DNA of 48,639 nt, counting the filler, from Bipalium vagum (Eukaryota): assembly GCA_037834085.1 (NCBI GenBank). It is 2 parts of 2 records of this genome, joined end to end, with 100 filler letters (N's around TTAATTAATTAA, not from the genome) between each part and the next. Parts side by side here need not be neighbours in the genome. Positions count along the whole stretch, not along the records: positions 1 to 27,693 come from JBBMKC010081694.1; 1 more part is not named here. One strand, written 5' to 3'. The position numbers and the translations under genes are program-made. Each line of letters begins with the position of its first letter. The stretch's first letter is position 1. This document shows positions 2,072 through 39,220 of this stretch, piece after piece. The notes under the pieces were generated by a model. The model saw nothing but the letters and a program-made list of their open reading frames with translations, was not told the DNA's origin and searched no databases.

Positions 2072-4778
2072 ATGACGACAAGAAATCTCACAGACAGTTT
2101 TATTTTCATGCGAAACAATTCCATACAAAATCGTCAATATCACAACGACGATGTAACATATTTACCTTTCGTTCACGTCTCACATAGATTCCACATTCGT
2201 TTTCCAGAATGACAGTTCAGACAAGGCACCGCTGATTTTCCGACGGTCCAAAGACTTGGAAAGCGGGGAAATGAAAGATGAAATGCCGAGCCACCAGTAA
2301 TTTTTCGATTCCATCGTTTTGAAACAATGATAATAATGATAATTATCTGGTTTTTTATTCTCGTGTAGCGCAGCTCTCTCTTCAGCAATCCAATCCGAAT
2401 TTGGTCAGATCCAAGAGAAAAGTTTACTTCACCATCAATAGATCAATATTGAAACGTTGATTCTGTCTTTTTTCTTTTCCAGTGAAGCTTCTGATCTCGT
2501 TGCACGACCGCCATCTCAACCGAGCCTGTCTGGATGACAACCTCGACGAGGACCGTGAAATCGAAATTTTGACGAAAGACTTGACCAAAGTGGCTCATTG
2601 TTTTCCTCCTCTTTATCTCTTCTTGACATTTATCGCTTCAGAATTTCGTCGACGTCCACAAAAAATTGTCCCAGCTCGTCTCCTCTGCTCGCCAATTTCG
2701 TCTGGCAGGAGGCGCCAAGGCGGCCATGTCCAACAACATTCAGTCCAACATCGCCCGGACGCTGCAGGACTTGTCCGTAGCGTTCCGGAAGGCGCAGAGT
2801 CAATATTTGACGAGTAAATATTGATTATTTCACATCGTCACTTTCTCTTTAAATCAATAATTAAATATATTTTATTGACAATTTTTAATTTCGAATTTTT
2901 AAAAAACGGTTTGAGTTTGATTAATTTTTATCGATTATTATTATTGATTTGTAGTAATGATTAATATTCATTATCGATTAATATTCAGTATGATGACTTT
3001 GTTTATAGCTGTTATTAATTTAAGGTATATCGTAAATTAATTTTATGGTTACAAATGATAATACCTGTTAACCCCAGTCTCTCCCTACCTCTTTACTTTT
3101 TCATTATACAATTACTCTGGTATGTATCTCAGAGCTGAAGTCACGCGATGAAAGACTGAAAGGACTGTTTGAAATTTCTGATGATTTCATTTCCAAATAT
3201 GACAGCACCAGCGAACGGATGGGGAACGAATTCGAGGATGATTCCGATGGCTTCGTTGGATATTATCGACCTCAGGTGGTTTTTTGTTGAGTCTCATTAT
3301 TATTTGATAGTAGTCAATAATGTTGATTTTATAAGTTTTGGTTTTATCATTATTATTATTAATTAATATTATTTTTAATATTATCAACTAATATTGATGT
3401 TTATAGTTATATTTCTTAATTTTAAAATTACTTATTTATATAATAATACAAAATTATTAATTTAAATTTATTATTAATAATATTTTCACTAATATTATTT
3501 ATTATCAAAATAATACTCCCTCCGTCCGGAAATATTGTATACATTTCAACAAAAATCGTAGATAATCGTGATTATAAAAATAAATTGGCAGCTTTCATTA
3601 CATTGTTATAGTAAATACTCATGACAATATAACCTGAAATATTTGACGTAAGCAATATCATTCTTAGTTAAAAACTTAACGCTCAAACATCAGTGTTTCT
3701 TGAGACAAATAAAATTAATACCACTGCAAGACGAATATAGAAAATTCTGAAGGAAATTTAGTAAACTTAGAAAGAAGGGATTCCAAATATAAACAATTAA
3801 CAAAAGAACAACGTCAAGGTATATTAGAAAAATTATTGCAGCAAATGAAGGAGAATAAGCTAAAACACGGTTCAATCAATGAAGTTGTTACTACGTTTCG
3901 AGTTTCCAGGCTAACTATTAAAGCCAAATCAAATTTCGAGAGAAAAATATCATTCTTATTTAATTAAAATGTTTCAAATAAAGTTAATATAATATACTTG
4001 TCATGTACATTTTTTGATTTATTTTATTTTTTCGCAAATGTATACCATATTTCCGGACGGAGGGAGTAATAATTATAATTATTATGGGTATTTATTATAA
4101 TTTATTAATTTATTGAAAAAAATAGCATTCTTATATATTATTATAATTATAATTATTATAATTATTTACTTTTAATATTATCAATTATTGATATTTATAA
4201 TTTATTTCTAATTTAATCAAAATATTTATAATATTAATTAATAATTAATAATTATTACATTTTATTATTAATAATATTTTCATCTTTATATATTATCATA
4301 ATAATAATTATTATTGTGCATATTTATTATAATGTATTAACATTATAATTATAATTATTATTAGTATTATTTCTATTATCAATACTATTATTATTATCGA
4401 TTATCATTGATTGTCATTGGTCACAATGTTCTATCTCAGTCCTCAGGCCTCAATCACCGACAAACCCAGCTCGTGGTGGAAGATAACTCGCGTGTCGTAT
4501 TGGAACGGGAAAAAGAAATCAACCAGATCTGCAAGTCGATTCAGGAGCTGAACGAAATCTTCCGCGACGTGGCCCAAATGGTTACCGTTCAGGGTAGCAT
4601 CATCGACCGTATCGACAACAATATCGAGCAGACTCAGTTCAAGGTCAAAGAGGGACTGAATCAAATCCAGAAGGCCCACAAGCTCCAGAAAAAGAACCGC
4701 AAGATTCTGCTCATCATTGTTCTGGCCATCATTGTCATCATTCTTTCGCTCTGGTTGATGTATCGGAAACTACCTTAG
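2072..4778 (+). CDS. STX16: Syntaxin-16 (Qa-SNARE, trans-Golgi). 7 exons: 2072-2152, 2208-2296, 2369-2421, 2483-2589, 2642-2813, 3133-3275, 4440-4778; 327 aa
   Basis: Manual splicing at GT-AG sites gives a phase-consistent 984-nt ORF. It has the N-peptide MTTRNLTDSFIFMRNNSIQNRQ, Habc segments (LISLHDRHLNR...; LQDLSVAFRKAQSQYL), the SNARE motif (EREKEINQICKSIQELNEIFRDVAQMVTVQGSIIDRIDNNIEQ) and a C-terminal transmembrane helix, all typical of syntaxin-16/Tlg2. Confidence 0.96.
3516..4066 (+). mobile_element. Stowaway-like, internally deleted DD39D (plant-type mariner) element in STX16 intron 6
   Basis: 31-bp terminal inverted repeats (TIRs) CTCCCTCCGTCCGGAAATAT(T/G)GTATACATTT with 1 mismatch, flanked by TA on both sides. 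Internal frame ~3782-3925 reads KQLTKEQRQGILEKLLQQMKENKLKHGSINEVVTTFRVSRLTI, resembling the N-terminal HTH of DD39D transposases. Confidence 0.85.
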
Positions 4779-9830: not shown

Positions 9831-10029
9831 AATCCTCATTACCCTTTTTTTTCTTTCAGTTAACTTTTTTCTATTATTAACGCTCTAAAAAACGTTTCCC
9901 GCTGATCACGAAACAAGTGGTACCAACAATGAATTCTTTTATGTCTGGATTTTCATTGGATGATAATGTCATTGGTCGACAGTCTCTTAAAAGTCTTTGC
10001 GTTACAGTTGAAAACATTTGCACCATTTC

Positions 10030-10824
10030 ATGATTAACCTAGGCCCATTTTTAATAACTTTCTTTGTCGCCTGTCTGGCATCATCAACTTCGACTTCAGG
10101 CAAGATGAAGTGTGCCTTGAAAGCATTGGAGCGCGCAAGATACACTTTTGCAGTGAAAGATGATTTCTGCTTGATAAGCAAGAGAAACATTTCGCGGAGA
10201 CGCACAAGATTTGAAAGTAAAGTTTACAAAAGAAGACCAACTGCATTTGGGCTGATTACAATTCAAACTGGGATACAGTACGATGCCTATCAATACTTAA
10301 CAAAGGGCCTTTCTATGTTAAATGGTAAATTGCAAATTTCAATGAACCTAGAATTTCACTCTCTTATGTTCCTGGAAGGATGGAAGGACCTGAAGCCATT
10401 AAAAATGAATATTTATCTTTTAGGAAATGACCGGAAAACGAACAAAGTCAGTCTTACTTTCAAAGTTAAGAAGAACGATACTCTGGAGTCGTGGTTCAAT
10501 ATAAACAATTTAATAAGCTCTAAACCATGGAACAAAGAATATTTGCTTGAAAATGGGTACACGAACTTTGTCATGAGAGGTCACAAACGACAGTTTTACA
10601 TTGAAAAACAGGGATCCCAAGAATGTGACGTTAGACTAATGGCTGTGCTGTATTCTATGGGTAATTGTTCTTATGTTGGAAATATTCTGTTAAATGGAAC
10701 CGAAAAGGGTTATCCCATGTTCCAGTATGTGGAAAATGATGTGAAAAACACTCCAACCTTTGCACATGTCATGAAATTAAGCGTAGAAACGGACAGCAGA
10801 GTGGAATATTTTGAAAGTAAATGA
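10030..10824 (+). CDS. Intronless predicted secreted protein, 264 aa: signal peptide, degenerate PAN/apple-like segment, and an uncharacterised invertebrate extracellular domain
   Basis: Uninterrupted 795-nt ORF from the ATG at 10030. Hydrophobic N-terminus MINLGPFLITFFVACLA, then KCALK...FAV...CLIS, then the pattern ESWF...LISSKPW...NFVMRGHKRQFYI...EC...C...PMFQY. AATAAA at ~11130. Confidence 0.75.
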   Translation: MINLGPFLITFFVACLASSTSTSGKMKCALKALERARYTFAVKDDFCLISKRNISRRRTRFESKVYKRRPTAFGLITIQTGIQYDAYQYLTKGLSMLNGKLQISMNLEFHSLMFLEGWKDLKPLKMNIYLLGNDRKTNKVSLTFKVKKNDTLESWFNINNLISSKPWNKEYLLENGYTNFVMRGHKRQFYIEKQGSQECDVRLMAVLYSMGNCSYVGNILLNGTEKGYPMFQYVENDVKNTPTFAHVMKLSVETDSRVEYFESK

Positions 10825-10892: not shown

Positions 10893-11071
10893 TTCATCTC
10901 ATCCATTTTCACCCTCTTTGAGAGTTCTCTTTCTTAACAGGCTAAAATATTACATTATGCGCCTTCATTTCAGTACTTGTTCATCTCATCCATTTTCACC
11001 CTCTTTGAGAGTTCTCTTTCTTAACAGGCTAAAATATTACATTATGCGCCTTCATTTCAGTACTTGTTCAT
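10893..11071 (+). repeat. Perfect tandem duplication, 87-bp unit x2
   Basis: TTCATCTCATCCATTTTCACCC...CAGTACTTG starts at 10893 and again at 10980. Confidence 0.95.
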
Positions 11072-14899: not shown

Positions 14900-16030
14900 T
14901 TGACTATCAAATTATGATATTGAAGGAATAATGTGATCCAATAATATCTCAAACTTTGTGTATACGTGGGTCCAGAACCAGCCTTATATAATGATAACAT
15001 ATCAGGTTTTTTCGATTTATTCCCATTTAGCAACTTAGACGATTGGGAAATAATAATTTGGCCAATCCATTGGCAATCACTGGTTACTGATAATGATAAA
15101 AAAATCTCACTGCTGCTGGATCCACTGCGACCTTCAAACTGTGAACGACAACAAGAATTCCACAAAAGGCTGAACGGAATAATAAATAAATTGAACAACT
15201 TCTTTCATGAGGCACACTTCGTAAATATTGATATGAAAGACAATTTTGGACACCCGTTGCAAGAAAATATGTATGATTTTGGTGTCTTTGTATGTCAATA
15301 CGCAATGGACTGTGTAAAATCAAGTTCTGGAATAAAGTTCAACAAACCATACTGTGAATATATCAGAAGATATATCCGAGTATTGCCTCAGTTAATTGAA
15401 AACAAGAAAGCAGTGATAAAAAACATTTCGATCAAAAAGGGTGACACAAAAGTCAGCATTGTGCAATCAAATGGAGAACCCAATACTTCTAATATTTGTA
15501 CTAAAAACTTTCAGAAAACAGAATCGACTACAAATTCAATCTTACTGAATCTCATAACAGGCCTGAATCTGGGAAAAACTACTCTCACTTAGGCAATCGG
15601 TCAAATAAAAGAACTGGTAAAGAAACATACCAAAATAATATCTCCTCTCTTGATTCATAAGGAGAAACAACATCCGAACAAGTACAAAATTAGAGAGATG
15701 TTTAACACAAGCCCAAAGAAAGCATATGAAGAAATTACTGGAAACGTGATACCTTCATCTTCTCCACACCGTTTCCAAATCGAGGAGTACTTTGATCAAC
15801 AACCAAAGGATATCCCAAACTATGAGTATACCTTTGAACTAACAAACCTATCAGAATCAAATTCGTGCTTACCCATCACGCATGAAGAGATTGAAATAGC
15901 GTTCAAATCAATAACCAATTCTGCTCCTGGCTCAGATTCAATCAAATACTCTGACTGGAGGTTATTTGATCCGCAATTTGAATTCTTATATTTAGAGAAC
16001 TTTCAAAACGGAAGAATGCTACACAAATCT
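14900..16030 (+). mobile_element. Truncated NeSL/R2-group non-LTR retrotransposon: Ulp1-like cysteine protease plus the start of reverse transcriptase (RT)
   Basis: ORF 14966-15592 has IIWPIHW, LLDPL and PLQENMYDFGVFVCQYA (Ulp1/C48 motif, with the catalytic Cys position reading Phe). ORF 15650-16033 has PITHEEIEIAFKSITNSAPGSDSIKYSDW (RT domain 0). Confidence 0.8.
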
Positions 16031-16034
16031 TAAG

Positions 16035-18422
16035 AAATTGTCTTACAACGGAAAGGATAATTACGTCGGACGACGAGCAACATACACGGTAAGAAATCCA
16101 AACTTTTATCAAACTTGGTGGCGCAATATTGGAGAAAATAAGCAAAAGACAGACACAAAGTACGTTAATGCAGTATCCGAAGACGAGGATATGGACTTCA
16201 TTCGGAGAGGAGATAAATTGTGATGTTACGATAGAGCATTTTCGATGCCAAATGTGGGGAAGATGCTAGACAACTTATACGGAACTGAATACATGAGTAC
16301 CATTGACCTCGGAAATGCCTATTATCAAGTGCCACTACATCCAGACTCACAGGAGAAAACAGCATTTTTCCACAAAAAATGGACAATTTTGTTTTAAGAG
16401 AATGCCATTTGGTATAGCAGCTGCGCCAGGGACAAGTGTTTTAAGAGGCTTAAAAGGAACTATGGTTTACATGGACGATATATTGATATTCTCAAACGAT
16501 GAGAAGCAACATTACGAAATACTGAGCACGGTCTTGGAGTAAATGCAAAACGCTGGATGAAAAATAAATACTGAAAATGTCTCTGCTTACGATCGGAAGT
16601 GAAATTTCTGGGGCACATTATAGATAAGAGAGAAATCAGAACAGATCCAGAAAAAATAGAAGTAATCCAAAAATTCGAAAGACCAAAATGTGTGAAGAAC
16701 CTGAGGAGTTTCCTGGGTATTTGTAACTATTACAGGAGATTCATCCTCAATTATTCGAAGAAGGACAGAGCCTTAGAGGCAATGTGCGGAAGTACGAGCG
16801 CAAAACTGATATGAACAGAAGCATGTAGCAGAGCTTTCGTAGAAATGAAAGAAGCAGTGATAAAAGCCCCAATGTTAGGTTTTCCTAGTACACCCAGGAT
16901 TTTTATACTTGATACAGACGCAAGTTTTGACGCGATAGGAGCAGTTCTGTCTCAGAAAGATGAAAGGAATCAAGAGAGGCTTATTGCATACGGATCGCAT
17001 GCATTATCTACTCATGAAAAAGGATATTGTATAACAAGAAAAGAACTACTGGCTATACACTACTTTTGCCAACATTTCAAACGTTACCTGTATGGCAAGA
17101 ATTTTGTGATACCCACGAACCACAAAGCAATAACATTTATGAGAAAAATCAAAAAACCCTCTCACTCCTCAATTTCAAACTTGGCTGAAATTCCTTCGTA
17201 GTTTAGATATGGAGCTGGAATTCAGAAAAGGCGAGAAACACTCGAATGCGGATATGCTGTCCAGAATTAATTGCGGAACGTGTACACAATGTTTGAGTAA
17301 CCACTAAGAGGCAAAAGGAGGAAAAATAAGGACAAGAACAATAAATGGAATAGACTACTGGCTGGGATGTAAATGGCAAGAAAATCAAAAAAAATCTTGA
17401 ATGATATTAACGAGGAAAAAGTAAGAACTTTCGACTTACAGATAATGTTTTAATGACAATGGAAGGGAAAATATGGATTCCTGGATCAAAGAAAGCAGAC
17501 ATTGTAAAAGACATGCATAAAAGACTCGTACATGCAGGTACCGAAAAATTAGTAGACTACATGAGAAAGATTTATGATATGGAACACTTGAGAAACACGG
17601 TCACCAGAGTCATAAAAGAATGTACAGCATGTCAGAAAACCAAAGTAAAAACGACTGCGACATAGGGAAAAACGGTAAAACTGGAAGCCCTTCGAAAAGA
17701 TTTATATGAACATCTGTAAACCACTGAGAGAAACATTCGGAAGCAAAAAAATACATATGTGCCATAATAGACCAATTCAGCAGATACATACGTCTAACAG
17801 CACTAGCTAAACAGGATGAAAGCTCAATCAAAAGGACAATCATGGAGAAATGGAAAAATTTTTAGAGCTCTAGCAAATTCGATGAAAATAAATATATGCC
17901 TCTCAAGATCATATCATCATAAAACGAACGGAATGGTGGAGCGACAATTTAGAACAATCCGAGATTATACCAATGCAAGGGGGAAAGACTGGGCAGAACT
18001 AATACCAGATATAGAATATACTCTAAATGCTACAATCCAAAAAACGACTGGAAAAAGCCCGACTGAGATAGTATTCGGAAGAAGAATATTTAGAGAACAA
18101 TGGATCAGGAATCAGGAAAATAAAGCAGAAGCGTAGGCACAAATACAGACAAGGAGACAATTTCAAGTGGGAGATAAAGTCCTGATCGAGATCGAAAGAC
18201 AAGAAAAAATACTGCGGCCCTTCACGGTAATCCAGAAAATTCACGACAGACGATACATAATGAGGAATGAAGCAGGCAGAAAACTAGAGAGAAACGTCGA
18301 GAAAATTAAAAAAAATCTTTGAAGAAGGGGGATGTGAGAATCTAAAAATATCTGAGTAACATATTTAATGTTTTAATTTAATTTTTTAGCCATCATTATC
18401 ACTTGATTTCACACTGCTCACA
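16035..18422 (+). mobile_element. Decayed Ty3/Gypsy LTR retrotransposon (pol, polypurine tract, candidate 3' LTR)
   Basis: RT (RMPFG, YMDD, KFLGH, RSFLGICNYYRRFI), RNase H (FILDTDAS, ELLAI), integrase HHCC zinc finger and core (YHHKTNGMVER). Polypurine tract GAAGAAGGGGGA at 18321-18332 is followed by TGTGAG...CTCACA. Many stops and frameshifts. Confidence 0.93.
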
Positions 18423-19359
18423 GGTGAACCGATATACAAATAAAAATAGTAATAAAACAAAATTAAAAGCTATAATTTGATTACGAATTATACGTTTTTA
18501 ATTAAATTAAATAAATACTAAGGATTGGACAGCTACTCCAGTACCTTAGGATAGAATAATTGTTGTCCTTTTTCTTATTTTCCAGTATTTTCTATTTTTG
18601 TGTTCTTGACGTCTAGTAGGACGGAGAACCGAATTTTTATCTGATGACCCTTGAGAGTAAGATACCGAAGGGTGATCTGACTTTTCTATTAACTCTTTAT
18701 CTCGGGTTTTAACTTCAAAGTAAAATTGTATTAAAAAAAAGTTAGATTTATATAAAATATATTTTATAAAAAAACTTGTTATCTTAGTTGATTAAAAGTT
18801 TGTTGTTTAAAAATTTTACCGTTTATTGTTTTAAAAGTTAAAAGGTTTTATAATCGATATTTGTTTAAAAGTTAAAAAGCTTCAAATTTTTATTGTCAAT
18901 CAAATTTTAACTTCGAACGTACGCACACTAAATCCTTCTGAATTTCCATATATTTTATGTTAAATTCCTAAAAAGTCCACTATCGATAATCTTAACTTAA
19001 TAAACATAAAAAGTCCACTATCGATATTCTTAACCCATTTAATAAACATTTTCATTTTCATAATAAATTATCTTTTTACCTATTATTATATGAAAAACAA
19101 TGATATGTACATTGATGTATATGAATAAAAGTAAATGGATAAAAAGAATATGTAATTAGTAACCTAAAAAGTTTCTGTCATTTTTCTCATCAGTTAGTTT
19201 AAGTTTAATTACAGTTTATTATAATATTGAAAATCAATTTTAAGAATTCAAATAATAAAATCAATTAGCTAGAGTAGATAAATCATATTTTTAAAATAAT
19301 ATCATATATTTATATGAATTTAGAGATATCGCAAAAAATTTAAAATGAAGAAGAAAAAA

Positions 19360-19760
19360 TAATTTCGTCAGGGCCACACTGATTTAAAAGAAGCACCCCG
19401 TTTTGTCCGACCAGTCGCAGAAAATGAACACAAAATTATTAAACTAATCAATCAAGTCTGGCACGTAAGCAGTTATGACATTGTCAAGGATCTAGGCATT
19501 TGTCAACAATCGGTTTTAAGTCATCTAGATAAACTTGATTACAAGAAGAAGCTTAATAAATGGGTGCCTCATACGTTATTATAAAATGATTTAATCAGAA
19601 GAATTGCCATTTGGGATTCATTATTAAAAAGAAATGAAATTAAAAATAATTTTTGAAGATGAAACATGAATCTCCTATGATAATAATATTACAAAAAAAG
19701 ATCGTTGTCCAAAAAAGATGAAGTTCCACAGACGATTGAAAATCCAAGTTTATCACACAT
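19360..19760 (+). mobile_element. mariner transposase fragment
   Basis: FRQGHTDLKEAPR...KKLNKWVPHTL (WVPHEL-type motif). Confidence 0.85.
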
Positions 19761-20099
19761 AGTTTACCCCGTTCGAACCCCCATTTTCTCCTCTCGGCAC
19801 GCACACTCATTCGTTCGTGAAAAACGTGTTTAGAAACAAGATAAACTGTCATATATAAAAATAAATAAAAAATAAAATAACTTGTACTAAGAACAAAAAA
19901 ATATTTTTTAGTTGAGTATAAAACTCAAAAAATTTAAAACTGAAAAAATAAAAAAAATAAAAATACTAATGAAAATATTAATACAAATAAAAATACTAAT
20001 AATGCTAATAAAAGTAATAATAGTAGTAATGAAAGTACTAAAGAAAAAGTAATAGAAAAAAGTACTAATAATAGTACTAATGAAAAATTAAAAATTCTT

Positions 20100-20560
20100 C
20101 AAGAAAAATATCCACCTTTTTTTATAAAAATAGGAGGAGATATTCAATCTTCAATTACAAATAATACATTTTTTAACAAATTTACATCTAGTAAATATCC
20201 AGTTGAATTATATTTTAAATCTTTAAATCCTTTAAACAAAACAAATCAATTTTCACAATTTCACAGGATCTGGAACTCACGTTTAGAAAACTATAGTGAA
20301 ATAATAAATAATTATAATGAAACAGGTGAATTAAATTTTCTTCCAATTCCAAAACAGATTCAATTCCAATAAATCGAGTTGATCAAGCGGCAATGAAACA
20401 TGATGTAAAATATATGTCAACAGATTTAAAAGATAGATTTGCTGCAGATGTAGAAATGATTCATGAAATGAACAATATTCAAAATCCAACTCCAAGAGTA
20501 AAACCTTAAAGAGCAATTGTAAAGTTAATTATGAAGAGCAAAGTCGCTTTAGGATTATTA
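20100..20560 (+). pseudogene. Parvovirus-like phospholipase A2 (PLA2X) domain of the Polinton
   Basis: FTGSGT (cf. GPGT loop), then PINRVDQAAMKHDVKY and DLKDRFAADVEMI, with frameshifts. Confidence 0.8.
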
Positions 20561-20629
20561 TTAGAAAGATCTTCAAAAAAAAAGCAATTGAAAAACTTTT
20601 CAAAAATTCAAAAAATTTATCTCCTGAAA

Positions 20630-21420
20630 AAAGTAAACAATTAGCAAATGACTTTCATAAAATTTTAGAAAAACTAAAAATTTCTTAAAAGTACAACTAA
20701 ATAACAAAAATGCTATTTGGTCTGCAGATTTAACTTTTGTTCCTGGAGCAAAAGATTATAAAATAATTCTAACAGTGATTGATTTATATACTCATTTTGC
20801 TTTTGCTATTCTTTTAATAAATAAAGAACAAAATCAGAACAATCAATTACAAATGCTTTCGATAAAATATTTGAAGATTCTAATAGAGTTCCAGAAAAAC
20901 TTTGGGTAAATCAAGAAACAGAATTTTAAAATAAAACTTTTGAAGATTTTTGTGATGATAACGAAATAGAAATTTACTCAACAGACAATTAGGGAAAAGC
21001 AGTTGTAATAGAAAGATTTAATAGAACTCTAAAAAATATAATGTTTAAAAAGTTTACGGAACACGGACATTGAAAATGGTTAAATTTTTTACCAAACTTA
21101 ATTATGATAAGTTTATAATAACAAAATTCATAGTTCAATTGGTATTTTTCCTAATGATGCCTCTAAAAATTCTGAAAGTTTAAAAACTACAACAACTGAT
21201 AATATTTCCCCTATTTCTCAATTAACTTTAAAATTAAAATATCATATTGGAGATCATGTAAGAATTTTTAAATATAAAAATTAATTTCAAAAAGGATATA
21301 CTGCTAAATAGACAAATGAAATTTATTTTACGACTTCAATCGATAATCGAATTATTGATTTAAAAGGAGAAAAGATTTTAGGATGCTTATACTAATATGA
21401 ACTTCAAAGAAGTAGTTTTT
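20630..21420 (+). pseudogene. Maverick-type (rve) integrase
   Basis: QLANDFHK, IWSADL, ILTVIDLYTHFAFA, PEKLWVNQETEF, KAVVIERFNRTLK, YNNKIHSSIG, IGDHVRI, FQKGYT. Several stops. Confidence 0.92.
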
Positions 21421-22599
21421 AAAGGATTTGAGTAATTAAAACTATTAAATGAATTAAAGATGACTTTTTCAGGTTAGTTATATTGTATAGTATATTTAAT
21501 TTAATTAAAGATATTAAATGATGTAAAAGTATTAAATTAAGTTAAAATATTAAATAAATTAAAAATGATTTCCAATCTAGTTATGTTATGCACAATATAT
21601 TTATTTTATTAAATTAATATTATTTTGTATGCTGTTACTATAACATTTTATGATAATTGTTATAATCTTAAGTGTCTTATTGCTATAACAGTATCAATTA
21701 AGGAATTAATTGTTACATTGTTAATAGATAAAATGACAATTAAGTGATAGCTGTTATCATCTATTATCTTAGTTGTTTTATTTATCAAATATTTATGCAA
21801 GTAAAACATTTTTGTTTTATTTTATTTTTTTATTATGATACTTTTTATAGCAATATCAGATTTTATTGTTTTTTTTCAATTTGATATACTGTATCAAGGA
21901 AATTAAAAAAAATTATTATCTGAAAAATCGTCATTAAATTAATTATCTTAAATTAATTATTTATCTGATTTATCTGATTTATTATTTTTCTGAATGAACA
22001 ATACAGAAACCATTCAAGATGAATTTAAGTATATAAAATTTAATTATCGGAAGGATAAGAAATTGATTGATTTATGCTCTTCCTTACGATCGAAAGTCTG
22101 TTTAATTGTTATTAAAAATAAAATAAAAATAATAAAAAAATTAAATAAAAAATCAATTGAAAACATATTCAGTTCAAGGAAAAGCTTTTAAATGCTTAAA
22201 AACTGATGCCTCAAAGAATTATATTGGATACCTAAAGAAAAACGAAATTATGTATACGAAAGAATATGTTAATTTCTTAACAAAGTTTGGCAAGTTTGGA
22301 GATTAAAATAAAAGAAAGATTTAAAGGAATTATTACAAAAATTATGTAAAAATAAAATTAAAATAATTAAGCAAGGAAATGGATTATATTTTGATTCCTC
22401 TGAGAAAAATAAATAATAGTTTTTTTATATTTAAAGTATAGTATATCTAAGATACACCGAAAATTAAATAATTAAAAAAATATTTCATTTTAGTATCATA
22501 CTATTTAAACTTTATTTTTTTAATATTTTATAAAAATGGGTATACTTGAAGTATACCAAAAAAAATAATTAAAAAAATAAAAATATTTATCTATAGTTA

Positions 22600-23600
22600 T
22601 CTAGCTGGAGAATTTAATTTATTAAAAATTAATTAAATAATTAATTAAAATAATTAATTAAAAAAGGACACTAAAAATTTAAAAATTCAAAAATATGTTC
22701 AAATACACACATCCCCCTATTTAAAGAATTTTTTAATTTTTTCAACATTCCTCTCAATCATTTTCCCTTTTCTGTCTTCAAGTAGATATCTTCTCTCATG
22801 AATTTTCCTGTTGATTGTATATGGTCCTTCAAATCTTTCTTTATCTTTACTTCTGCCTTCAACTTTTACCAGCACTTCGTCACTCAGTTCGAACATTCTT
22901 CCTGTTGTCACTGGACACGGTTTGTCCTGCACCTCTTCTTTTTCCTTCTGATATCTTGTGGCTGAACCAAGCTTAACTGTGAATTGTCCTCCCAAATATT
23001 ACTTCAGTTTTGCTTATTACATAAGTTTTGCATTAGACTGTTCGACTAGTGCTTTGAAAACTCTCAAGTCTTTCATGTCGTATAAATCGGCTATAAACCT
23101 TTAACCTTTTCGGTTCCCGCATGTGTTAGGGATTTATGCACTTCTTTCATTAATAATTGGCTCCTGGTTTTTCGAATCTATATCTTCTCCTCTTTCGTCT
23201 TAACCAAGCCATCTTCCAAACGAAAATTAAACGTGCTTCCCTTTTCAATAAACCCTTTGATCTGATTGATCTCATCTTCCTTAATCTGATATTTATATTC
23301 GGTAGCTTCATGTACAGTATTTATTGCTCTAGTCTTTCTTTTTTCAGTTTGACGCGAAATTTGACTTTTGTTCTCAATAGATGACATTTCTCTGGGTTCA
23401 TTCTAAGCCCTGCTTATGATATTCTCTTTAGTACTTCATTTAGAATCTGATAATGATATTCTATATTTTTCGTATGGATCATTATATCATTCAAATAGAC
23501 CATAGTGTTTCTTAGATTATCCAACACCTTCATTATTAATTCTTGAAAAGTTCCTTGGCCCGCAGCAATACCAAAAGGCATTCTCGTGAAAAAAAATTGA
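22600..23600 (-). mobile_element. Internally deleted Gypsy element inserted in the Polinton; same family type as 16035-18422
   Basis: RMPFGIAAGQGTFQ and MVYLND (RT), HAGTE (integrase zinc finger), FEGPYTINRKIHERRY...ERNVEKIKKF. Polypurine tract GGGGGA then TGTG at 22711 on the minus strand. Left boundary approximate. Confidence 0.88.
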
Positions 23601-24016
23601 AGGTGAAGATTATAGTAAAGATTTTTATAATAACTGGACAAGAGATTATAGTTTAAAAGATTTGAGTAATTATGTACATCTAATAAACTATTTTAAAGGA
23701 GCAATGAACTGAAAATTTGTAAAACTTATTAAAAGCCAAATAAGCAAACTTGATGAAATAGAAAATGCAGGAGAAGGTTATAAAATTTACAAACTAAAAA
23801 AAATTCTTGATTAGTTTGTAACATTAAGCAAATATTTAGCAACTAAAAAGACAGGACATGATAATTTTGATCATTTAATTTTAAAAATTTTAAATAAATT
23901 AAAATAGCACAAAAAAATAATAGATAAAAATTATGAAAACATATGAAAAAATATTTTAATAACTGATACAACTTAACTTAAAATAATAAAAAAATATTAA
24001 AATATAACAAAATTAA

Positions 24017-24831
24017 ATGGAAGTTGGTTTACAGAAAATATCAAACCTTTGATCTCAAAAAATTTTCTTCAACATTTTTAGTAAAAAGTAAAACATCAGA
24101 AATATCTTTTAGATTTGATAATACTTTAAATCTTGATCCTAATTTAAACTAAGAATTAGATTTAGCTTATTTTTCAACTTATAATTCTAAATTTAATATA
24201 AACGAAGATAATAATAGAATTAATATAACAGTAATAAATAGTAAAAAATTACTCGTTACAAAAAATATCAGATTAACCCCGGGTGCTTATGAAATTGAAG
24301 AAATATTAAAAGTTATAGAAAATGAATTAAAATATGATAAAACTTTAAAAACTTTAGGAGTGACTGTAGGTCAAAATGGTAAACCCATTGATAAAGAATA
24401 TTACATAAAAATTAAACCTAATTCTCTTTCAGGAAATATAATAATAAAAATAACAAAAGGATGTGCAGTTCATTTTCCTCAAAATAATTAACTAGCTAAT
24501 TTTTTACGGTTTGAAATTAACATGTATACTGAAAAAAATTCACTAGTCTAAAAAAATTAATATTTCAAATATAAATAATATTAAGATAGATTGTAATGTT
24601 GTAAATGGATCATTTTTTAATGGTAAAAACTCAAATATCATTTTTGATTTTCCAACAAACACTGTTAAAATAAAAAATGAAATTATATAGAGACCAAATT
24701 TTCCAATTTATTATCCCGTAATTGTAAGCATGATTGATGAAATAAATTTTAGAATTGTTGATTATAATGATGAGTTAATAAATTTTAATGGAGAATATAT
24801 TACTTTTAGAGTTCATTTAAAACAGTTGTAA
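24017..24831 (+). pseudogene. Polinton minor capsid protein (penton)
   Basis: TYNSKFNINEDNNRI, LTPGAYEIEEI, INNIKIDCNVVNGSFFNG, RPNFPIYYPV and FRIVDYNDELINFNGEYITFRVHLK match the Polinton/adintovirus penton pattern. Stops and frameshifts present. Confidence 0.85.
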
Positions 24832-24879
24832 ATTTTTTTTTCTTTTTGTATTTTCTAAAAATCCAGTTCTATTGTGATG

Positions 24880-25520
24880 ATTTCTTAAATAATAATTCGG
24901 GAAAGATTAAAAATAATTTTAATTTATCAGAAATTGTTAGAATGTTAATTACTGATCCTTCTGGATCTGGTAAAACAATGTTATTATATAATATGTTATT
25001 AAAGAAAAATTATATAGAATATAATAATTTTATTATTTTTTATAAAACTTCTTTCCTTCAAACATCACTAAAACATATTAAAGATTGTTTTGATTATGGA
25101 TTATCTAAAGAAGAAGAAGTTTGTCAAATGTTTAAAAATGAAAAAAAATATAAATTTGATGAAACAAATTACGCTTATAAAGTCCGAAAAATTAAACTTA
25201 CATTATCAGATAAAGCGAATGAAATTCAACCTCCAGATAAATTGGATAAAACTAAAAAAAATTTAATTATTTATGTTGATGTAATAAATGAAAAAAATTA
25301 ATATATTATGCAAATGTATTTTACTCGAGAAGACATAATAAATGTTCAGTAATATAGTTATCTCAATCATTTTTTGATTTACCATTAAGCTCAATAAAAA
25401 ATAATACAAATGTCTGAATTTTATTTAAAATTTCTCAAAATGATAAATCACAAATTTATTCGTAAATGTTATCACATTTCATTGATAAAGAAGAATTTGA
25501 TTATTTATTTAATTTCACAT
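24880..25520 (+). pseudogene. Polinton A32/FtsK-like DNA packaging ATPase
   Basis: Walker A RMLITDPSGSGKT, Walker B KNLIIYVD, then FTR..RH, LSQSFFDLP and IKNNTN. Confidence 0.88.
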
Positions 25521-25639
25521 AAACCGAAAATATAATTATATAATTTTAAATATAATATAATATAATTTATATAATTTAATTTTTATAAATTTAGAGACTA
25601 TCAAAATAGAACCTTCAGCTTTTGAAAGCAAAGATATTT

Positions 25640-26050
25640 ATAAATTTAAATTTAATAAATATAAATTTCAAGGTATATTTCCTTTGAAATTAATGTTTGG
25701 TTTTGTTTAATTTTTTAAGAAAGCTATTTATAATAATCAAGGTGATATAACATTATTAAGAAAAAAAAGTAATGATAAAGAAATCTTTTATGGAACCAAA
25801 GGAGAGTTAAAATTAAATTTTAAAAAATTATTATTATTTATTCGTTCATTAAAATTAAATAATAACGCAAACTTAAATCTGGTCTCTAGAATGACAGATG
25901 GTAAAAATCATAATATTGATCTTTTTGAATAGGAACTGTATAGAACTAAATTTAACAGATGGTACAACTCAAAACTTACAAATATTTGATGTACCTAGTA
26001 TTCAAATTTTTTATTTGTTACTTTTAGAAAAACACGTTTTGATTATAGAA
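25640..26050 (+). pseudogene. Polinton major capsid protein (hexon) fragment
   Basis: FPLKLMFGFV*FFKKAIYNNQGDITLLR resembles the conserved IPL..hFGF..DY.K.h.N....h.L.R capsid motif. Confidence 0.65.
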
Positions 26051-26059
26051 AAAATAATT

Positions 26060-26775
26060 TTCATTTTTTCATAATGGATCTGATTATGACTTTCATTTAA
26101 TGATAAAAGATTTGGAAAATGAAATTCATATGAACGAAAATACTTCAAATCTAAATGATATATTCAAATTAATTCCCAAAACAGATGAGAAATATATTTC
26201 ACTTACTTATAATAAAAATTTTTAATTTGTAGACTCTTTAAGATTTCTTTTATGTTCTTTAGGTGGAGCAGCAAAAGCATTAGATAAAAAAGATAAAAAA
26301 AACTTAGAAAAATTTTGTAGAAGTTACTTATGTAATCGAAGTATTTCCGAATTAAATAATATTTCTACATTTAATTTATTAGATGAAAAAAAAATTTACC
26401 CATATGTATATTTTAGTGATTTTGAAAAATTTAGTAGAACAAAATTATACTAAATAAATTAATAATTAATAAATAATGTATAATTAATGTATAATTAATA
26501 AATAAATTATACAATTTTATATCTCAAACAAGATGTAATGTTATGAGCAGACATTTTTGAAAAATTTAGAAAATAATCAATTTTTGATCCTAGTCATTTT
26601 GTTACTACACCTGGATTAACATGGCAATTAGAATTATTAAAAATAAAAATAGAATTAGATTTAATCTCTGATCAAAATATGTTTGAAATATTTAAAAAAG
26701 GAATTAGAGGTGGAATCTCAACAATTCTAGGAACAAGATATATTAAGGCAGATAATAAATATACTGAAAAATCAA
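26060..26775 (+). pseudogene. Protein-primed family B DNA polymerase fragment
   Basis: FHNGSDYDFHL, IPKTDEKYIS, FVDSLRFL, YPYVYF, DVML*ADIFEKFR, DPSHFVTTPGLTW, KGIRGGIST. Confidence 0.92.
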
Positions 26776-27449
26776 AACATTATTTTGAATAATGTTCCAA
26801 CTCCAACAATTTCTTTGAGTTCCTAATTTAAAATGAGAATCTATTTTTGTATATTTAAATTTAAATTTTGTATAATGTGTTAATAAATCTTCTAAATTTT
26901 TTTTTCCTTCATAAAATTTTCAATTTTTAATTTTTCTAATTAAAGGATTAGAATCTTTATAAATAAATTTCGAAGATAATCTTCTCTTATTCTCATCTCC
27001 TTCTAAGTCTGGATAAAGGTTTTGAAAAGGAACAGTAGGTTTAATTTCCAATATCTAATATAAATTTTTTAAAAAATGTTAAGATTTTTATAATATTTTA
27101 CATTGTAAAGAATTGAGACGAAGTCTCGGAACGCTACATTGTAACGTATATTTGGATAAAACTTTTTCATAAAAATTTCAATTTCTTCCATTTCACTTTT
27201 AAATAAACTTCTTTTAAGAATTATGATTTCATAAATTTTATATTTTTTAAATTATATTGAAATTCATACTTATTACTTGATGGAAAAATTGTTGAATATT
27301 TTTTTCTGTATTATAGAAAAAATGTAAATGTGTTCGAAAAGTAAGTGATTTAGTACATTTTAAAAGTATTAAATCGTTTCCGAATTTAGATTCTATTACT
27401 TCTGTTCGTCCAATTGATTTTCCATTAAAAAGCAAAGTTTGGAAGAGTA

Positions 27450-27693
27450 ATATCAGATGCTGAAATATTTCAAAAGGCCACAGAGATTAGGCCGTTAGAG
27501 ATTATAAGGAAAAATAGTAATGTCTTTGTGGCAGATAAATGGGATATTGTGTTCACGGACCTGTTGAAACATAAGATTGTGACGAAAGAAAATCCCGTTA
27601 ATGTGAAACCATGGAGCAACCAGTTCATTTAGAAAATAAAATAGACGAGGCTATTTCAAACCTGTATAAAAATAAAATCATTAAAAGATGCAA
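27450..27693 (+). mobile_element. Gypsy RT N-terminal fragment
   Basis: NVFVADKWDI, LKHKIVTKENPVNVKP and IDEAISNLYKNKIIKRC; runs into the gap. Confidence 0.75.
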
Positions 27694-38432: not shown

Positions 38433-39220
38433 TTGGGTTGCTTCATAAGTCTATGTGTTTTTAATGAAAATATTATGCATGTCTTATAGATAAGAATCTA
38501 GCAATAAAACAATTTTTATTTAGAAAAATAAAGAACATTATGTTCAACTGTCTTAATCCAACGATGGACAAGTTTTTCGATGCCACTCCGGTACCATGCT
38601 TTATCTTTGGAAAGGAAAAATTCACGACATATATTTTCAACCTGTTTTATATTCTCAAACTGTCGTCCTCTAAGAAAATGAGCCATTGATCGTGGTAATC
38701 GCTGGGTCTAGACTGAACGCAGGATGTGGAAAAATTTCAATTCCTACTAATTGGGTTATTTTATTTTGCAATACTCGTGCATCATGCGGACGAGCATTCT
38801 CCTGTTGCAGAAGCATTCGCTTTCTGTTGATTAAAGCAGGATATTTTATTGCTAATTGTTCTTGCATCTGATCGAGTTGAGCAGAATATAACTCAGCGGT
38901 AATGGTTTGGCCATCTGGAAGTACTTTGAAGTTTATAATCCCCTCAAAGTTCCACCACACGCATAACATGATCTTTTTTATCAACCTATATTGTTTTGGA
39001 ACAGTCTTGGGCTTCTGGCGTACCTCCAACCATTGATTTCTCCTGTTCGGATTATAAAAATATATCCATTTTTTGTCCCATGTTACTATGCGACGCATAA
39101 AGTGTTCATCATTTGAATAATTTAATAAATCACGACAGATCGACAAAGGACGTTCAGCTTGACTTTACGTAAATCACGTGGTACTTCAGAAACGCGCTTG
39201 TATCGCTTGTTATGTTGATG
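38433..39220 (-). mobile_element. mariner (DD34D) element, 3' part
   Basis: TA|TTGGGTTG TIR. ORF 38670-39146 has RIVTWDKKWIYF, KIMLCVWWNFEGI, QENARPH and PHPAFSLDPA. Confidence 0.9.

Follow-up and report, generated by a model that had tools for sequence, protein, structure and literature searches.

Several described virus-like elements are close to the locus reported here, and the statements on them below follow the portions of each source drawn upon. In the preprint setting out the polinton-like virus (PLV) framework, Maverick, Polinton, and adintovirus are synonymous names, and a phospholipase is recorded for group 2. In Alpha adintoviruses, the phospholipase A2 (PLA2) is joined to pX, forming PLA2X (Starrett 2021, PMC8502044), and re-pairings of hexon and PolB have been described (Starrett 2021; Buck 2024, 10.1101/2024.03.25.586562). 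Buck 2024 defines adintoviruses by an OTU-PolB, a recognizable hexon, and a chromodomain integrase. The portions of Yutin 2013, Yutin 2015, and PMC5803895 considered here mention the Polinton PLA2 without a link to the integrase, while Barth 2026 (10.64898/2026.10.13.758929) reports that replicase mosaicism is common and proposes a shared specificity or an adapter at the element ends. Here we describe a Polinton/Maverick remnant in the animal Bipalium vagum, at positions 19755-27431 of a 48,639-nucleotide stretch of DNA (the window), together with the family of copies to which it belongs in the same genome. The remnant holds traces of a PLA2-integrase, penton, A32 ATPase, hexon, and pPolB, along with a Gypsy fragment, and lies on the contig that makes up positions 1-27693 of the window and ends at 27693.

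The locus is an ordinary, decayed fossil of the known class Polinton/Maverick. An initial annotation of the window had proposed a fossil Polinton with a virion module, and this is borne out. Neither of the findings that it said would refute the idea was made: models of the family's capsid candidates give double and single jelly-rolls, and many further copies carry the genes in linkage. The class assignment is right, and the anatomy given there needs correction from other genomic copies. A fossil Polinton in an animal is ordinary, and the interest lies at the level of the family. The explanation that we favor overall, and consider quite probable, is that the locus is a composite fossil of an abundant two-replicon family built on one integrase-capsid lineage. 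That lineage occurs as two replicon types, one with AGTAGT ends and an endonuclease-VII pPolB, the other with ACACA ends and a second pPolB. Two features were not found in the literature searched. One is a terminal inverted repeat (TIR) that differs from one polymerase to the other while the integrase is shared; the other is a conserved fusion of PLA2 with the integrase, undescribed in a search that had figures, Repbase entries, preprint supplements, and subscription papers outside its scope.

Comparison of the window DNA with the genome gives 90 matches from 40 scored of 10,470 candidates, far beyond chance, and a hexon query gives 151 matches from 150 scored of 2,522 candidates. The best penton-ATPase DNA matches to other copies are 81-89% identical over 1.4-2 kb. 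The loci set used throughout comprises 239 loci (1.15 Mb in total, some overlapping). The native order, pieced together from other copies, is TIR, PLA2-integrase, pX-like gene, protease-motif gene, small ORFs, penton, ATPase, hexon, pPolB in reverse, and TIR; in copies that hold both genes, L036 and L040 among them, pPolB and hexon converge. No uninterrupted core gene is seen in the 239 loci, each being broken or cut by a contig end. The longest open frame there is 354 amino acids (aa) in the fusion, against 463 in a relative; the hexon reaches 327, against 413, and pPolB 521. Stops are present in 139 of the 150 listed hexon matches. The closest copies compared are 92-93% identical, and the activity of the family therefore looks old, with the proviso that young copies may be collapsed in the assembly. 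The suggestion in the initial annotation of intact relatives elsewhere finds no support in the present assembly, whose fragmentation can hide young copies.

A double jelly-roll major capsid protein is predicted for the family. The Pfam DJR-like_dom (PF21738) matches the hexon of L040, L019, and P0123 (E 3.2e-12 for the L040 frame), and a model of the L100 hexon frame, with 96 sequences, reaches a pLDDT of 87.7 and matches the vaccinia D13, PBCV-1, and mavirus capsids. Structure matches of this model to named adintoviruses are weak, and a PDB sequence search with the hexon returns no match. A full HMMER search finds 256 hexon relatives; a shared-word search for longer ones gave none. The ATPase piece of L040 gives a Pox_A32 match that passes the cut-off (E 5.1e-5). 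For pPolB, DNA_pol_B_2 matches in L040 (E 1.4e-5) and L097 (E 4.7e-11), and Endonuclease_7 also matches frames of other copies. At the N-terminus of both pPolB types we see by eye Cys and His motifs that we take to be OTU-like; this region has no Pfam match. A candidate protease is identified by motifs alone, its His, Asp, Gln, and Cys motifs in L037 and L231 standing in what we presume to be the order expected of an adenain-like protease. A repeat scan finds only low-complexity repeats in the parts scanned.

Three points count against this picture of the family. The assembly consists of 272,664 contigs with no full-length element seen, such that order and linkage are pieced together from fragments. 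The candidate protease has no Pfam or PDB match and stands on its motifs. Lastly, a single jelly-roll minor capsid protein is predicted from a weak model (pLDDT 62), made from the 50%-identical relative P0121 and not from the window copy; its top solved match is the mavirus penton (Z 9.1, rmsd 15.3, 224 residues aligned), followed by other viral capsid proteins, and it also matches minor capsid proteins in BFVD (E to 1e-11).

Separately, an HNH-like ORF, recognized by eye and with no Pfam match, lies between pPolB and hexon in L119 (L119:1530-2288), L105, L042, L096, L053, L089, and L036. It is optional, being missing in copies such as L040 and L099, and is possibly a homing-type gene.

The two replicon types differ at their ends and in their polymerases. 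One end starts with ACACA (236 exact 19-mer matches) and the other with AGTAGT (142 exact 23-mer matches), with 0 matches in controls; these counts are not copy numbers, each end having two arms. Both end types fold back on themselves over 84-290 bp. The initial annotation had called for a search for TIRs, and these are found at the level of the family, with lengths of 205, 253, and 301 bp (the last in L166) at 84-90% identity, the window copy keeping its left end only. Between ACACA and AGTAGT TIRs, sequence sharing is limited to A/T runs of up to 30 nt (best E 0.011). Some palindromes run end to end over 84-286 bp; we considered these as miniature inverted-repeat transposable elements and rejected them, as one flank is conserved element sequence and none has a target duplication. 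The two pPolBs adjoin one capsid module, their exonuclease regions cannot be aligned (best E 0.055), and one carries the endonuclease-VII domain.

Ends and polymerases are strictly paired among the 153 ACACA and 64 AGTAGT arm matches scored, for which we recorded the next gene within 1.3 kb. Where that gene is pPolB, it is the second type next to ACACA arms (18/18, 0 of the endonuclease-VII type) and the endonuclease-VII type next to AGTAGT arms (15/15, 0 of the other). The same integrase follows 19 of the ACACA and 11 of the AGTAGT ends, and the remaining arms lead to other genes or none. These data bear on a rival explanation, which we regard as unlikely: that these are two separate Polinton families, with trees mixed by recombination or gene conversion among dead copies or by mis-assembly, and with ACACA elements maybe moved by another integrase in trans. 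Against two families, several independent left ends show identity between the types that begins exactly where the TIR stops on its inner side, the left arms of both end types being 84-88.5% identical from that point, ~200 bp in. Integrase identity is also equal within (84.3%) and between (83.8%) end types, and the integrase tree (17 rows, after 4 of 20 candidates were dropped as short or absent and the window was added) intermixes the end types, with 4 changes vs a shuffled mean of 4.4.

The hexon DNA tree has 15 copies, with 4 short rows left out and L036, L052, and L053 not entered, and its clade holding L040 includes 5 copies of one pPolB type and 2 of the other. L040 belongs to the endonuclease-VII type; its hexon reaches 92-93% identity to hexons next to the other polymerase, and 72-76% to 8 of 9 other hexons of its own type. 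In L040 and L052, shared DNA picks up again within ~50 bp of the stop of either pPolB. Polymerase and ends have likely been exchanged together as a unit.

Target duplications of 6 bp, another check proposed in the initial annotation, are found at the level of the family and are exact in L107 and L180, both AGTAGT elements. For ACACA elements, the duplication matches at 5 of 6 positions in L229 and at 4 of 6 in L166. In the other 9 of the 13 pairs of ends that face each other, no more than 3 positions match; several of these pairs are inner arms or mixed types. The exact duplication in L180 (L180:667-2340) flanks a short AGTAGT-ended element that sits inside the ATPase gene of another copy.

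Several observations weigh on the other side, and some favor two separate families. A full or near duplication is present in only 4 of the 13 facing pairs, and none is exact for ACACA. The second hexon clade is pure, all of its 8 rows (8/8) being of the endonuclease-VII type, and shuffles of the hexon tree reached as few changes in 55 of 500 cases. The 33 end-polymerase rows descend from two lineages, meaning that Fisher's P (1e-9) overstates their independence. Chimeras exist as well: L045 carries one end of each type, and L150 (L150:386-5654) has, near 2350-2390, a join between the two pPolB types in the same direction, the first represented by its start together with an ACACA end. Post-insertion recombination among copies, or mis-joins, therefore also occur.

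For the exchange of polymerase with ends over one integrase-capsid lineage, we propose the following course. Replication would be protein-primed from the element ends, and insertion would be carried out by the rve integrase, with the 6-bp duplications that we observe. The right arm, i.e. polymerase and end, would most probably have been swapped by recombination just behind the pPolB stop, with the new end then copied to the left side during replication through panhandle pairing of the ends, a process established for adenoviruses. Because protein-primed replication needs a cognate origin, a polymerase swap would be viable with its own end. The integrase, for its part, would tolerate both ends via the terminal protein or a hairpin. 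That the ends follow the polymerase and not the integrase favors a reading based on an adapter or on shape recognition, and makes it testable. A more extended proposal is that polymerase and TIR form an exchangeable cassette, that one PLA2-fused integrase is guided by the pPolB terminal protein or a shared hairpin and not by end sequence, and that PLA2-integrase is a widespread, protease-processed virion precursor; we advance it tentatively, as possible and on balance doubtful.

The fusion itself is well conserved. L045 and L024 each have PLA2 and the rve integrase within a single open frame (rve E 3.3e-15 in L024), at odds with the separate genes of the initial annotation, and both Pfam domains are present in 94 of the 120 listed of 258 relatives. 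ESM Atlas clusters with both domains have 184, 111, and 72 members (scores 0.82-0.85), which we treat as a lead only. Among 120 aligned relatives, the PLA2 His-Asp pair is kept in 102 of the 103 rows with a letter there, and the DDE residues in 120/120, 118/120, and 119/119. A G-x-G linker between the two domains keeps its glycines in 112/112 and 100/111 aligned relatives and is found by pattern in 37/43, vs a background of 0.003. It resembles what we take to be adenain cleavage sites, and may also be merely the end of the PLA2 domain. We propose that PLA2-integrase could be a packaged precursor, cut at this linker to give an entry lipase and a ready integrase. Its presence in 94 of those 120 proteins suggests that the Polinton integrase is carried in particles, as in retroviruses. 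No fusion relative is found in phage records or in IMG/VR contigs, and the PDB sequence searches give a weak match to a foamy-type integrase.

In 20 of 33 matches (counting duplicates), the integrase frame ends 4 residues after its final conserved motif. There is no chromo Pfam match, and no chromo-like pattern is visible by eye in the four longest integrase tails. PLA2X, i.e. PLA2 with a C-terminal pX, is also not what we find: PLA2 runs into the integrase frame, and the pX-like gene is separate, ~0.8-1 kb downstream. The label adintovirus-like in the initial annotation fails for these stricter features.

In the window, the core gene remnants were located by tblastn with natural relatives, and each has stops or frame changes. 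The rve match there has E 3.5e-4 in the Pfam search. The parts of the window copy, and the tail beyond it, are as follows.

19755..19953, + strand: ACACA-type TIR forming the left end, a degenerate terminal palindrome; many copies share its sharp start next to unrelated flanks
20133..21419, + strand: broken PLA2-rve integrase fusion without chromodomain (tblastn with P0001/P0003; rve match), with PLA2 at ~20245-20570 and integrase at ~20664-21419
21420..22309, no strand: AT-rich stretch with a 65-aa ORF at 21994-22191
22310..22620, + strand: 3' tail of a gene that we assume to be pX-like, and the spacer that precedes the protease elsewhere (81-91% DNA matches)
22658..23595, - strand: fragment of a Gypsy-type long terminal repeat (LTR) retrotransposon (RVT_1 E 5.7e-12)
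23595..23990, + strand: what is left of a conserved ORF that precedes penton (matched by DNA of many copies)
24000..24828, + strand: broken penton (minor capsid) gene (46-50% to P0121)
24813..25623, + strand: broken A32-like packaging ATPase (72-79% to pieces in L040 and L006)
25648..26058, + strand: middle fragment of hexon (major capsid; 90% to L040)
26063..26771, + strand: pPolB fragment of the endonuclease-VII type, inverted vs its native position (62-72% aa identity to L123 and L040)
26793..27431, - strand: small conserved ORF block, displaced and inverted, natively between protease and penton
27432..27693, + strand: non-Polinton tail to the contig end, Polinton matches ending at 27431

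The gene remnants lie where the initial annotation had placed them, stops run throughout as it had described, together with frame changes, and the RVT_1 match confirms its Gypsy insertion. Its view that TIRs are lacking is superseded by the sharp start at 19755, outside the start it gave; this left end is listed among the 236 exact 19-mer matches (control 0), and the same end makes 200-300 bp TIRs elsewhere. The small ORFs that it lists, at 21620-22310, have no DNA match among the parts of the loci compared and no Pfam match; within 21420-22309, which as a whole has no Pfam match, only 21420-21620 matches another contig, L043. An adenain-like protease is indeed absent from the window, as noted there, and the family has the protease-motif gene, lost here by deletion. 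The break is at ~22620, and in L043 the same spacer runs on into the protease gene. L080 has the same Gypsy insertion, with the same junction at 23595 and 92% identity, yet keeps the upstream small ORFs and genes deleted in the window. The window copy therefore lost ~4.5 kb, protease included, by deletion, a size estimated from L037 and L080. In the hexon, ~450 bp of the 5' part are deleted and the 3' part is cut off.

The tail is less simple. Both the pPolB piece and the 26793-27431 block are reversed relative to their native direction, and the ACACA end type, which is that of the window, leads into the endonuclease-VII pPolB in 0 of 18 cases; the tail at 26063-27431 therefore most likely represents the remains of a second, oppositely oriented, internally deleted element, as judged from sequence comparison. 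The initial annotation had instead read a single element with natively co-oriented genes, hexon and pPolB being joined by deletions only. The two deletions are real, and all remnants from 20133 to 26771 do read on the + strand. However, the 20 copies labelled for the hexon tree have pPolB and hexon facing each other, the 26793-27431 block is matched at 73-88% DNA identity by sequence that lies on the opposite strand and ahead of penton (L037, L038, L039, L043, L050, and L052), and the 26060 join has 0 spanning matches in other loci. Together with the 0 of 18 cases above, this makes the deletions-only account very improbable, and the join is of the inversion type.

In no other locus do we find sequence crossing the joins at 25644, 26060, 26782, and 27431, which weighs against a composite formed in the genome and would suit an assembly mis-join of repeats, as would the contig end 260 bp further on and the very fragmented assembly. 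Copies differ by 10-25%, however, leaving long identical words scarce, and rearranged or nested copies are common in the family, including L180 with its clean duplication; we find a mis-join quite unlikely. The locus is a dead, rearranged copy that likely combines one ACACA-ended element with what is left, in inverted form, of another. Its history probably ran from the Gypsy insertion to the loss of ~4.5 kb with the protease, the partial loss of hexon, and the gain of the inverted tail.

Some further observations concern the surroundings. The 92% identity of L080 (C202542) across Gypsy and junction suggests a Gypsy-bearing copy duplicated after insertion, or a divergent haplotype. A second Gypsy fragment lies at 16815-18322 (RT_RNaseH_2 E 1e-29), with 70% identity to 22659-22807, and a mariner-like transposase remnant seen by eye at 19300-19754, with no Pfam match, is cut by the Polinton left end. 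The tail at 27432-27693 has no Pfam match and by eye is presumably reverse transcriptase (RT)-like. Upstream, a host exon with a SNARE domain (4365-4778, E 1.4e-14) is, we assume, syntaxin-16-like; this match and an HMG-box match fit an animal host. A 270-aa open frame at 10012-10824 has no Pfam match and resembles by eye a frame at L112:8336-8998; just downstream of it is an exact 92-bp repeat (10893-10984 and 10980-11071). An Ulp1-type Peptidase_C48 frame (14945-16033, E 2.3e-4) is followed by a non-LTR RT-like frame recognized by eye, and the second stretch of the window holds a mariner Transposase_1 fragment (38670-39164, E 2.4e-22).

Among known systems, and as far as the portions of each source used here go, the family resembles the phospholipase group of the Polintons/Mavericks (class Polintoviricetes; bioRxiv 10.64898/2026.06.19.733378) in its pPolB, rve integrase, A32 ATPase, and both jelly-roll capsids, as well as in its protease-motif gene, TIRs, and 6-bp duplications. 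It differs from that group in that PLA2 is fused to the integrase, in having two TIR types, each a terminal palindrome, and in that the core genes seen are all broken or cut off by a contig end. With Alpha adintoviruses (Starrett 2021, PMC8502044; Buck 2024, 10.1101/2024.03.25.586562) it has in common a PLA2-like domain, hexon, penton, and ATPase, and also, by eye only, OTU-like motifs at the pPolB N-terminus. Those viruses have PLA2X and a chromodomain integrase, whereas the Bipalium family has PLA2 on the integrase, a separate pX-like gene, and, so far as its frames indicate, nothing that answers to the chromodomain in the definition of Buck 2024.

Swaps of pPolB have been published for nematodes, whose pPolB1/pPolB2 Polintons (Jeong 2023, 10.1101/2023.08.22.554363) likewise combine closely related core genes within one host with a pair of very distant pPolBs, of which one carries an HNH-type endonuclease domain. 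Their TIRs are reported to be highly conserved across both pPolB classes, whereas in Bipalium the TIR changes with the polymerase. In the Polisuviricotina (Barth 2026, 10.64898/2026.10.13.758929), replication modules re-associate with morphogenic modules and endonuclease genes lie near replicases, as they do here. There, pPolB stays linked to DDE integrases; in the Bipalium family, by contrast, the integrase lineage stays while polymerase and ends change, which bears on the point raised in that work, i.e. whether pPolB and integrase share their end specificity or one serves as an adapter for the other.

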